DNA from: Escherichia phage Pu-Krd-SF1
Sequence record: PQ249395
Length of the DNA stretch: 64,000 nt
Direction: 5' to 3' (one strand)
Below are positions 19,677-20,758 of this stretch, one piece after another (position 1 is the first letter of the stretch; the number at the start of each line of letters is the position of its first letter). Both the position numbers and the translations under genes were made by a program. Below the pieces are notes generated by a model, which saw only the letters and a list, made by a program, of their open reading frames with translations, did no database searches and had not been told where the DNA came from.

Positions 19677-19701
19677 GGGAGCCTTCGGGCTCCCTTTTTT
19701 T
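19677..19701 (+). terminator. intrinsic terminator
   Basis: GGGAGCC-ttcg-GGCTCCC then TTTTTTT. Confidence 0.75.
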
Positions 19702-19756
19702 ATTTCAAAATTTTTTCACAAAACGGTTTACAAGCATAAAGCTTTATGGTACTATA
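19700..19756 (+). promoter_or_regulatory. T4-type early promoter with upstream element (cassette copy)
   Basis: ttttttcacaaaacgGTTTACA then TGGTACTAT. Confidence 0.65.
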
Positions 19757-19789
19757 CAACTATCAACTAATACGGATTTGGAGAATAAA

Positions 19790-20758
19790 ATGAAAACTGT
19801 AACTATCAATAAGGGTATCTACTTCGGTAAAGAAATCTCTGGAACTTTTGAGCTCTTAGGCGAATGGTTCCCAGATAATGCTCCGGTAGATGCACAAGGA
19901 GATGGTAAAGTTTTTGTTGAAATTGACGGTAAACGTCGCGGTGTTTGGGTTTACAAATCAGATATTTCATATGATGGTGTAAAAGTTGAAGAAGTTAAAG
20001 AATCGTATGAAGATATGAAAACCCGCATTAATAAAAGATTTAACGTTATGGGAATGATGACGAACGGTATTATTAATGGAAATATTCGTTCATTAATTAT
20101 CTCTGGCGCAGCAGGTATTGGTAAAACGTATTCTTTAGATAAAGCTTTAAATAAAGCAAATGATATTGGATACATTGAATATAAAAGCATTAATGGTAAA
20201 ATCTCTGGTATTGGTCTTTATGAGCAGCTTTGGAATAATCGTGAAGAGAATTCTGTCCTTTTGATTGATGATGTGGATGTTTTCTCTGATATGGACATTC
20301 TTAATCTTCTGAAAGCTGCTCTGGACACTGGAGAGACCCGTAAAGTCTGCTGGAGCACTGCATCTTCTTACTTAGAAGAAAAAGGCATTGACCGTGAGTT
20401 TGAATTTAAAGGAACGATTGTTTTTATCACAAACGTTGACATTGACCGCGAATTAGACCGTGGTACTAAACTTGCTCCACACTTACAAGCATTAGTGTCC
20501 CGCTCAGTTTATTTGGATTTGGGTGTTCACACTAATGAAGAAATTATGGTCAGGGTTGAAGATGTTATTCTTTCAACTGACATGATGCAAAAGCGCGGTC
20601 TTTCTGATGAAGAAACTTATAAAGCATTATCATGGATGAAAGTTAATGTTAATCGTTTACGCAATGTTTCACTGCGTACTGCTCTTTATCTTGCTGACTT
20701 TATTATGACCGACAAAAACGGTTGGGAAGAAATTGCTGAGGTTACTCTTCTGAAATAA
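19790..20758 (+). CDS. P-loop ATPase (AAA-like)
   Basis: Walker A SGAAGIGKT, Walker B VLLIDDVD; ORF-track start 19622 trimmed. Confidence 0.6.
   Translation: MKTVTINKGIYFGKEISGTFELLGEWFPDNAPVDAQGDGKVFVEIDGKRRGVWVYKSDISYDGVKVEEVKESYEDMKTRINKRFNVMGMMTNGIINGNIRSLIISGAAGIGKTYSLDKALNKANDIGYIEYKSINGKISGIGLYEQLWNNREENSVLLIDDVDVFSDMDILNLLKAALDTGETRKVCWSTASSYLEEKGIDREFEFKGTIVFITNVDIDRELDRGTKLAPHLQALVSRSVYLDLGVHTNEEIMVRVEDVILSTDMMQKRGLSDEETYKALSWMKVNVNRLRNVSLRTALYLADFIMTDKNGWEEIAEVTLLK

Follow-up and report, generated by a model that had tools for sequence, protein, structure and literature searches.

The 64-kb stretch of DNA analysed here (the window) belongs, by its sequence, to a T4-like Tequatrovirus. 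In megablast searches, positions 18000-23000 and 46500-50000 are 100% identical to Escherichia phages Pu-Krd-SF6/SF4 and ~96% identical to T4, and, read in reverse complement, the window corresponds to the long early region of T4, roughly from 75 kb to 11 kb. Three repeat sites are early promoters ahead of nrdC.10 (19.7 kb), nrdC.8 (21.1 kb) and imm.1 (48.2 kb), three mutually unrelated genes on the + strand. nrdC.10 (ATG at 19790) encodes a 322-aa P-loop/AAA-like protein (Walker A motif, weak AAA matches), nrdC.8 (ATG at 21223) has no Pfam match, and imm.1 (ATG at 48292) encodes a DUF5481 protein whose signal MKIAILVIALGLAGC carries an LAGC lipobox. Given the Walker A/AAA matches and the lipobox, the names 'ATPase' and 'lipoprotein' used for nrdC.10 and imm.1 in a first-pass annotation are fair. 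Homing endonuclease genes, for example mobD, are annotated near the cassettes.

At nrdC.10, an intrinsic terminator, with the stem-loop AGGGAGCC-TTCG-GGCTCCCT and a T run after it (19676..19695, + strand, as are all features below), ends nrdC.11 and abuts the UP element; its T4 ortholog is annotated in record U76612. The A/T-tract UP-element region (19698..19726) includes TTTCACAAA at 19714-19722 and is 96% identical to 48209-48236. The core early promoter (19727..19755), ortholog of T4 'early promoter 54.4', consists of the -35 element TTTACA (19727-19732), a 17-nt spacer ending in TGG and the -10 element TACTAT (19750-19755). From a +1 placed by geometry only, the predicted leader runs to the ATG (19762..19792) and contains GGAGAATAAAA at 19780-19790.

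The core early promoter of nrdC.8 (21166..21194) combines the -35 element TTTACA, the spacer AGACTGTTCCTCTGTGG and the -10 element TACTAT, and the 3' end of nrdC.9 reaches into its UP region. A 14-nt inverted repeat spans 21176..21218: the spacer arm (21176-21189) pairs with a leader/SD arm (21205-21218; GGAGG), and the loop holds the -10 box and the predicted +1 (21201). At imm.1, an intrinsic terminator stem-loop after gene 43 (48123..48140), annotated as a putative termination signal in T4 record M37159, lies ~70 nt upstream of the UP element. The imm.1 early promoter (48205..48257) comprises the UP sequence ATTCCCTAAAAATTTTTTCACAAAACTG, the -35 element (48229-48234), the spacer (48235-48251) and the -10 element (48252-48257). 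Its predicted leader is of the short nrdC.10 type (48264..48294) and bears GGAGAATGAAA at 48282-48292, with one mismatch to the RegB/S1 site. Because no intrinsic terminator lies upstream of the nrdC.8 promoter at 21.1 kb and that at 48.2 kb is ~70 nt away, the strict terminator-promoter layout is found only at 19.7 kb.

The three promoters belong to a family of 17 promoter-like + strand sites in the window, defined by TTTACW, exactly 17 nt and TAnnnT. Members lie upstream of the ipI locus (three sites), e.8, denV, vs.8, regB, mobD.5, nrdC.10, nrdC.8, nrdC.4, 55.6, imm.1, sp, mrh.2, modB and srd. All 17 combine TTTACW-N17-TAnnnT with a +1 ATCAAC motif and a GGAG ribosome-binding site; in most copies ATCAAC follows the -10 box by seven nt, and we infer from this geometry only that its A is +1. 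A generic sigma-70 scan was uninformative by itself (46 sites against 45 expected). The T4 early consensus has GTTTAC at -36 to -31, an A-rich UP element and GT-rich sequence ahead of the -10 box (PMC1524935), and reviews describe T4 early promoters as 'über' UP/-35/TGn/-10 promoters (PMC2988021). The three sites have the same core, with G-TTTACA, an N17 ending in TGG and TACTAT, and UP elements in the form of AAAATTTTTTCACAAAA tracts at 19.7 and 48.2 kb and of AAAAAATTGTGAAAGAAGTTTCTTTT inside the coding end of nrdC.9 at 21.1 kb. The UP element, the -35 and TGn/-10 elements, ATCAAC and GGAGAATAAAA are parts that could be shared through function alone.

Two of the three promoters have annotated counterparts in T4. 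Segment record U76612 gives, at the nrdC.10 ortholog, a terminator just upstream and the -35 and -10 signals of 'early promoter 54.4' and, at the nrdC.8 ortholog, -35 and -10 signals; the imm.1 promoter has no such entry, a putative termination signal being the sole annotation near that gene in M37159. The T4 whole-genome records NC_000866 and AF158101 lack promoter features, and our literature search for T4 transcription-start RNA-seq data returned nothing usable. Relative to T4 early promoters, 54.4 included, the promoters in the window occupy orthologous positions and are 97-99% identical, with allele-level differences only.

The motif GGAGAATAAAA perfectly matches the consensus of strong RegB/S1 sites, GGAGRAYARAA, for which AAUAAAA has been described as the 'canonical' A-rich tail (PMC3014915, PMC1702504). 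Four perfect copies occur in the window against 0.47 expected, each in a translation initiation region just 3' of an early promoter of the family. At nrdC.10 the match at 19780-19790 is perfect and the leader unstructured, making this a putative cleavage site; in T4, the nrdC.8 RegB site is reported to be cleaved moderately (PMC1702504). The leaders measure 22-40 nt. Those of nrdC.10, imm.1, nrdC.8 and e.8 are no better folded than shuffled sequence (z 0.0 to +1.3), and a leader RNA element was for that reason rejected.

Self-BLAST of the 64-kb window ranks these cassettes above all other internal repeats. The best match pairs 19747-19796 with 48249-48298 (94% over 50 nt), the second pairs 21165-21205 with 48228-48268 (97.6% over 41 nt), and a further match pairs 19707-19734 with 48209-48236 (96% over 28 nt); in all, 19707-19796 and 48209-48298 can be aligned over 90 nt. 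The first-pass annotation had proposed both a segment shared by the ATPase and lipoprotein genes, which the top match bears out with the first copy starting at 19748 rather than 19747, and an upstream part shared by 21166-21205 and 48229-48268, which is the second-best repeat. Exact copies of the 19-mer GGTACTATACAACTATCAA lie at 19748, 21187 and 48250, against an expected count of 0.01, and a copy with 3 mismatches lies at 5470.

Related cassettes lie elsewhere in the window. The upstream element of the TTTCACAAA type is exact at 5436, 19714, 33561 and 48216, with another at 908, and the element near 62191 reads TTTCGTAAA, with 2 mismatches; of the related copies previously placed at 5425, 33550 and 62180, the first two are thus exact, at 5436 and 33561, and the third diverges. 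The cassette before e.8 (5436..5523) has the same UP element, a -35 element at 5449 and the leader ATCAACTACTGATACAG...GGAGAATAAAATG, and that before 55.6 (33561..33635) has the same UP element, a -35 element at 33574 and the -10 element TATTAT. The ipI locus holds three tandem cassettes (921, 1260, 1641); in the cassette at 908..988, the SD/ATG stretch (974-993) is 100% identical to 19778-19797.

The three copies share much more than the generic early-promoter consensus. Spacer identity between 21166 and 48229 is 94% (16/17 positions) against a family median of 41% among the 17 early-promoter sites, and over the ungapped interval -32..+42 the pair 19727/48229 is the best of the family, at 76% against a median of 49%. 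Around +1, the nrdC.10, nrdC.8 and imm.1 sites are identical or 92% identical. The first-pass annotation had named a similarity confined to the promoter consensus as the finding that would count against related cassettes, and the identity among the three is instead far above the background of 17 promoters. The copies are paralogous, and each of them matches another exactly over 20-50 nt.

The imm.1 cassette is, as its alignments to both paralogs and to T4 indicate, a true mosaic, in keeping with the earlier proposal that the 48.2-kb copy is a chimera of the other two. Between 48044 and 48456, the window differs from T4 only by four substitutions (48239-48248), a 3-nt indel (48267) and one leader change (48269). 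All four substitutions fall in the spacer and carry the nrdC.8 state (binomial P = 5e-4 for the clustering), which delimits a minimal conversion tract at 48239..48248; ~48227-48268 (42 nt) is 100% identical to the T4 nrdC.8 promoter. The UP element and leader are nrdC.10-like, the leader being 3 nt shorter than in T4, and the spacer is nrdC.8-like. Spacers of the nrdC.8 and imm.1 types are ~75% alike, so that only the four sites carry the conversion signal. RNA folding against shuffles gave no significant read-through hairpin at imm.1 for either the window or the T4 allele. The tract is thus an orphan 5' hairpin arm, and this lack of a pairing partner argues that nrdC.8-type cassettes were the donor.

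We then compared the cassettes across genomes, using the 19-mer core to retrieve copies from IMG/VR and metagenomes and sorting them by their flanks; such an exact-match sample is biased to conserved cores. The exact 19-mer precedes at least 12 different genes, motA among them, with up to seven exact copies recovered per genome, and BLAST places 5-8 related copies in most genomes. Three metagenome matches to the 19-mer, on unrelated contigs, were set aside as chance. In the genomes sampled, the nrdC.10 and nrdC.8 spacers are constant and the imm.1 locus has three spacer alleles: its own (AGAMTGTTCTTCCAT), the e.8 type (TCCCTGTTCTTCCAT) and the nrdC.8 type. An imm.1-type spacer is found, in turn, at one e.8 locus. 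UAB_60, fHoEco02, G3F10 and the genome L034 likewise have the nrdC.8-type allele at imm.1, which is found with both downstream gene arrangements. These distributions indicate that patches moved between loci up to ~43 kb apart and were later spread by ordinary recombination. As the mosaic allele is widespread (UAB_60, fHoEco02, G3F10), the phage studied here was probably not its maker but acquired it through ordinary allelic exchange.

The same comparison reveals gene-sized differences bounded by the cassettes. In four genomes (L013, L014, L018 and L024), the sequence remains homologous from gene 43 across the cassette and slightly beyond the ATG, after which a 78-aa ORF intervenes before homology resumes at the imm.1 ATG; both junctions of this insertion lie at ATGAAAAT, and the imm.1 SD differs in these phages. 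In L020 and L027, a module of 0.5-0.75 kb separates the nrdC.10 promoter core from the nrdC.10 SD/ATG and carries a 49-aa ORF, a DUF4031-like ORF and an extra early promoter of the type found at 921 in the window. Its right junction falls in the 20-mer GGAGAATAAAATGAAAAC, of which the window has two copies, at 974-993 and 19778-19797, that match at 100%. The cassette type of 908..988 stands directly ahead of nrdC.10 in L027. In L027 and L015, a junction falls in the interval bounded by the terminator stem and the end of the spacer. Altogether, four loci show the same upstream context with alternative genes downstream. In the window itself, the three sites show the 'empty' state seen in T4, and their downstream genes are conserved T4 genes. 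The suggestion that the cassettes mark sites of novel-ORF shuffling therefore holds for relatives, which have extra ORFs at them, but not for the three genes downstream in the window.

We consider it very probable that these elements are sigma-70-dependent early promoter-leader cassettes of the T4 type that exchange patches between loci and provide crossover points for the gain and loss of ORFs. In a full cassette, a stem-loop that is either upstream or embedded would accompany an A/T-rich UP element, GTTTACA and, after a spacer of 17 nt, TGg-TACTAT; ATCAAC and a short leader free of structure would follow, with a GGAG ribosome-binding site that doubles as a putative RegB/S1 cleavage site. If active as promoters in this phage, the cassettes would drive immediate-early expression of nrdC.10, nrdC.8 and imm.1. 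The very active recombination of the phage would use the copies as substrates for patchy ectopic gene conversion, and such conversion could have yielded the imm.1 mosaic, in which the UP element is native, the spacer of the nrdC.8 type and the leader short and of the nrdC.10 type. The cassettes, and above all their SD/ATG repeat, would also serve as crossover points at which small ORF modules are inserted or lost.

Functional convergence on an extended early consensus could make the copies alike with no exchange at all. UP, GTTTAC, TGg-TACTAT, ATCAAC and GGAGAATAAAA are common to many of the 17 promoters, and extra consensus regions in T4 early promoters are noted in reviews (PMC2988021). Yet the spacers are the least constrained part of the family (median 41%), and it is here that 21166 and 48229 share 16/17 positions. 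The same spacer allele can be found at one locus in one phage and at another locus in the next, the differences of imm.1 from T4 are clustered and all point toward one paralog, and the nrdC.8-type spacer at imm.1, an orphan hairpin arm, is not adapted to its place. Convergence is largely refuted by these observations, and we hold it to be very improbable. The mosaic could alternatively have arisen solely by allelic recombination at the same locus between co-infecting phages. Its presence in several isolates and with both downstream arrangements indicates that it was clearly spread by allelic exchange; the imm.1 alleles identical to the nrdC.8 promoter (-35 to +13) and to the e.8 spacer nevertheless each need at least one entry from another locus, which leaves allelic exchange an unlikely sole source.

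A dedicated integron-like or endonuclease-driven system, moving ORF cassettes by site-specific recombination, is suggested by the layout of cassette plus ORF, which recalls integron cassettes, by the mobD-type homing endonuclease genes nearby, and by the helper protein envisaged by the authors who described promoter-early stem-loops (PeSLs) (PMC2839356). The junctions do not behave accordingly: they lie variously at ATGAAAAT at start codons, in GGAGAATAAAATGAAAAC and, in L027 and L015, in the interval from the terminator stem to the end of the spacer, and neither a recombinase nor a fixed core site is evident in the window annotation. Homology of <50 bp is enough for T4 general recombination (PMC2839356), and variable junctions in short repeats fit general homologous or microhomology recombination. 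We regard a dedicated system as having very little likelihood. Patch exchange between early-promoter cassettes by ordinary recombination accords with part of the earlier description of the sites as mobile promoter cassettes of the PeSL type: the resemblance to published PeSLs and the indels in relatives stand, but autonomous mobility is unsupported, the junctions varying in short repeats.

In Comeau, Arbiol and Krisch 2014 (PMC4122927), the PeSLs of T4 and PST are composed of a stem-loop, an AT-rich region, TTTACW-N17-TAYWAT, an SD and an ATG. The fit of the present cassettes to these T4-type PeSLs, already proposed in the first-pass annotation, is close: they have the same consensus together with the AT-rich region, SD and ATG, and likewise sit beside indels between close relatives. 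They have a stem-loop, the 48.2-kb copy being the looser fit; the 3' end carries the SD and start codon with conservation over ~100 bp, and insertions, deletions and replacements between near relatives are associated with them. The published T4/PST stem-loops lie just upstream of the promoter, and here this is so at 19.7 kb only; unlike them, the 48.2-kb terminator is ~70 nt upstream of the UP element, and at 21.1 kb the -10 box sits within the stem-loop, whose helix takes in the SD. In RB49 and phi1, PeSLs are ~100-bp cassettes with a strong early promoter and a stem-loop that form chimeras after exchange (Arbiol et al. 2010, PMC2839356), and in RB49 crossovers were mapped experimentally between the -10 box and the SD/ATG (PMC2839356). 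Repeated promoter cassettes and chimeras are common to both systems, and some RB49 stem-loops also overlap the -10 box (PMC2839356). RB49 promoters are near-perfect TTGACA/TATAAT with G/C-tract stems, unlike those here, and the authors call the T-even elements analogs, not homologs (PMC2839356). The cassettes also resemble the shuffling elements of the T-even IP locus (Repoila et al. 1994, as related in PMC2839356), which have T4-type early promoters, AT-rich stem-loops and variable small genes; unlike those elements, the three sites are found not at IP loci but in the nrdC region and next to gene 43.

The finding is therefore already known in kind, as an instance of PeSL-type shuffling on promoters annotated in T4 decades ago. 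Its value is one of confirmation, in the form of multi-genome sequence evidence for patch exchange between loci tens of kilobases apart. The gene-sized insertions and losses bounded by cassettes support the PeSL model at three loci that go unmentioned in the accessible text of PMC4122927. Annotation pipelines should mark such sites as early promoters, and in comparative work the SD/ATG repeat should be treated as an expected place for recombination breakpoints.

A modest by-product, which may be new, is a set of hairpins embedded in early promoters. The nrdC.8 spacer TGTTCCTCTGTGGT pairs with the leader ACTACGGAGGAACA, SD included, and the read-through RNA folds at -24.6 kcal/mol (z -5.1; 0/200 shuffles as stable). 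Comparable read-through hairpins are found at regB (-23.4 kcal/mol, z -4.6; T4 ortholog -23.1), vs.8 (-20.1 kcal/mol, z -3.4) and the denV-like gene (-19.1 kcal/mol, z -2.2); the same folding against shuffles gave nothing significant at nrdC.10 or e.8. The cognate spacer-leader duplex ranks 1/17 for nrdC.8, regB and denV, with a permutation P = 0.017 over all 17.

In T4, inhibitory hairpins at e, soc, 49 and I-TevI mask the ribosome-binding site in long transcripts (PMC3014915). As in that class, the nrdC.8 helix includes the SD and has a promoter and predicted start inside, an arrangement that, among the three sites, occurs at nrdC.8 only. The e, soc, 49 and I-TevI hairpins contain a late promoter; the internal promoter of nrdC.8 has the early consensus instead, and the 5' arm is its own -35/-10 spacer. 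The nrdC.8 hairpin would thus work like the known class without being a known member of it. We found no description of a hairpin switch at early promoters in the reviews consulted.

We tentatively propose, while judging it somewhat less than probable, that the promoters of nrdC.8, regB, denV and probably vs.8 form a hairpin switch. The spacer would act as an anti-SD arm that locks the ribosome-binding site of read-through mRNA in a helix of 10-15 bp, and mRNA from the gene's own promoter, lacking the 5' arm, would be translated and open to RegB. If true, such a switch would confine the proteins to the brief period of early-promoter firing, explain the conservation of some spacers, and account for the nrdC.8-type spacer at imm.1 as an orphan arm marking the direction of conversion. 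Promoter-embedded hairpins, if real, would extend ribosome-binding-site masking in long T4 transcripts to early promoters.

A third cassette type in Dhakavirus genomes has no hairpin (MFE about -5 kcal/mol), so the hairpin is locus-specific and not general to early promoters. RB69 has a different hairpin with the SD outside it, and the JS98 stem has one mismatch. The Dhakavirus denV and nrdC.8 cassettes are nearly the same in sequence, with a U-A to A-U swap in the stem (UA:7, AU:4); the covariation score is 0.121 against 0.069 in shuffles and reflects effectively one event. At denV, pairing is kept despite sequence change, the arms being UCUCCUGUAG/CUACAGGAGA in T4 and UUCCUCCAAG/CUUGGAGGAA in the denV-like gene of the window.

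[quoted passage not shown] The resulting spacer–SD inverted repeats precede the denV-like gene (window 9273-9320), vs.8 (10376-10432), regB (12490-12536), and nrdC.8 (21176-21218), and in each of the four predicted hairpins, the loop holds the −10 box together with the inferred transcription start. The predicted folds have minimum free energies of −19 to −25 kcal/mol, with z-scores from −2.2 to −5.1. Sequence changes have accumulated among T4, the window phage, and Dhakavirus genomes, yet the spacer–SD pairing is retained.

Near-identical promoter–leader cassettes also stand in front of T4 denV (L061:20360-20414) and nrdC.8 of the Dhakavirus VR5 (L067:344-398), although both the downstream genes and the genera differ; what separates the two cassettes is a compensatory change of a stem base pair, from U-A to A-U. 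Two relatives, L027 (core at 9037, minus strand) and L015 (core at 2125, minus strand), carry deletion remnants in the form of "half" cassettes, in which the UP element and −35 box have been lost, the −10 box and leader are retained, and the end of the spacer is joined directly to a terminator stem.

The ipI locus contains three tandem early-promoter cassettes (window 921, 1260, and 1641) spaced by ~350 nt, and the small genes at these cassettes differ from those of T4. It is the classic locus of internal-protein shuffling. The gene arrangement in window 9268-10450 is also not that of T4: a denV-like gene with only 78.6% identity to T4 denV lies upstream, and after an ipII homolog come a promoter and then vs.8. 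This layout points to the ipII/denV locus having been replaced or rearranged. A family of 30–35-nt repeats occupies the 5′ ends of ORFs at window 983-1017, 1316-1351, 9741-9775, 10068-10102, and 55644-55674. The copy at 986 translates to MKTYQEFIAEA, the capsid-targeting sequence of internal proteins, and a small ORF at 55645, in the position of T4 61.1 and outside the internal-protein loci, begins with the similar MKTYKEFIKE.

Self-BLAST of the window returned two perfect palindromes, one of 22 nt with a TTGGACAGCTGTCCAA core (44461-44482) and one of 20 nt (23841-23860), both of which seem to lie within coding sequence. A perfect 12-nt palindrome, ATAAAGCTTTAT, occupies the promoter spacer of nrdC.10 (window 19736-19747), has a HindIII site at its center, and is unchanged across almost all sampled genomes.
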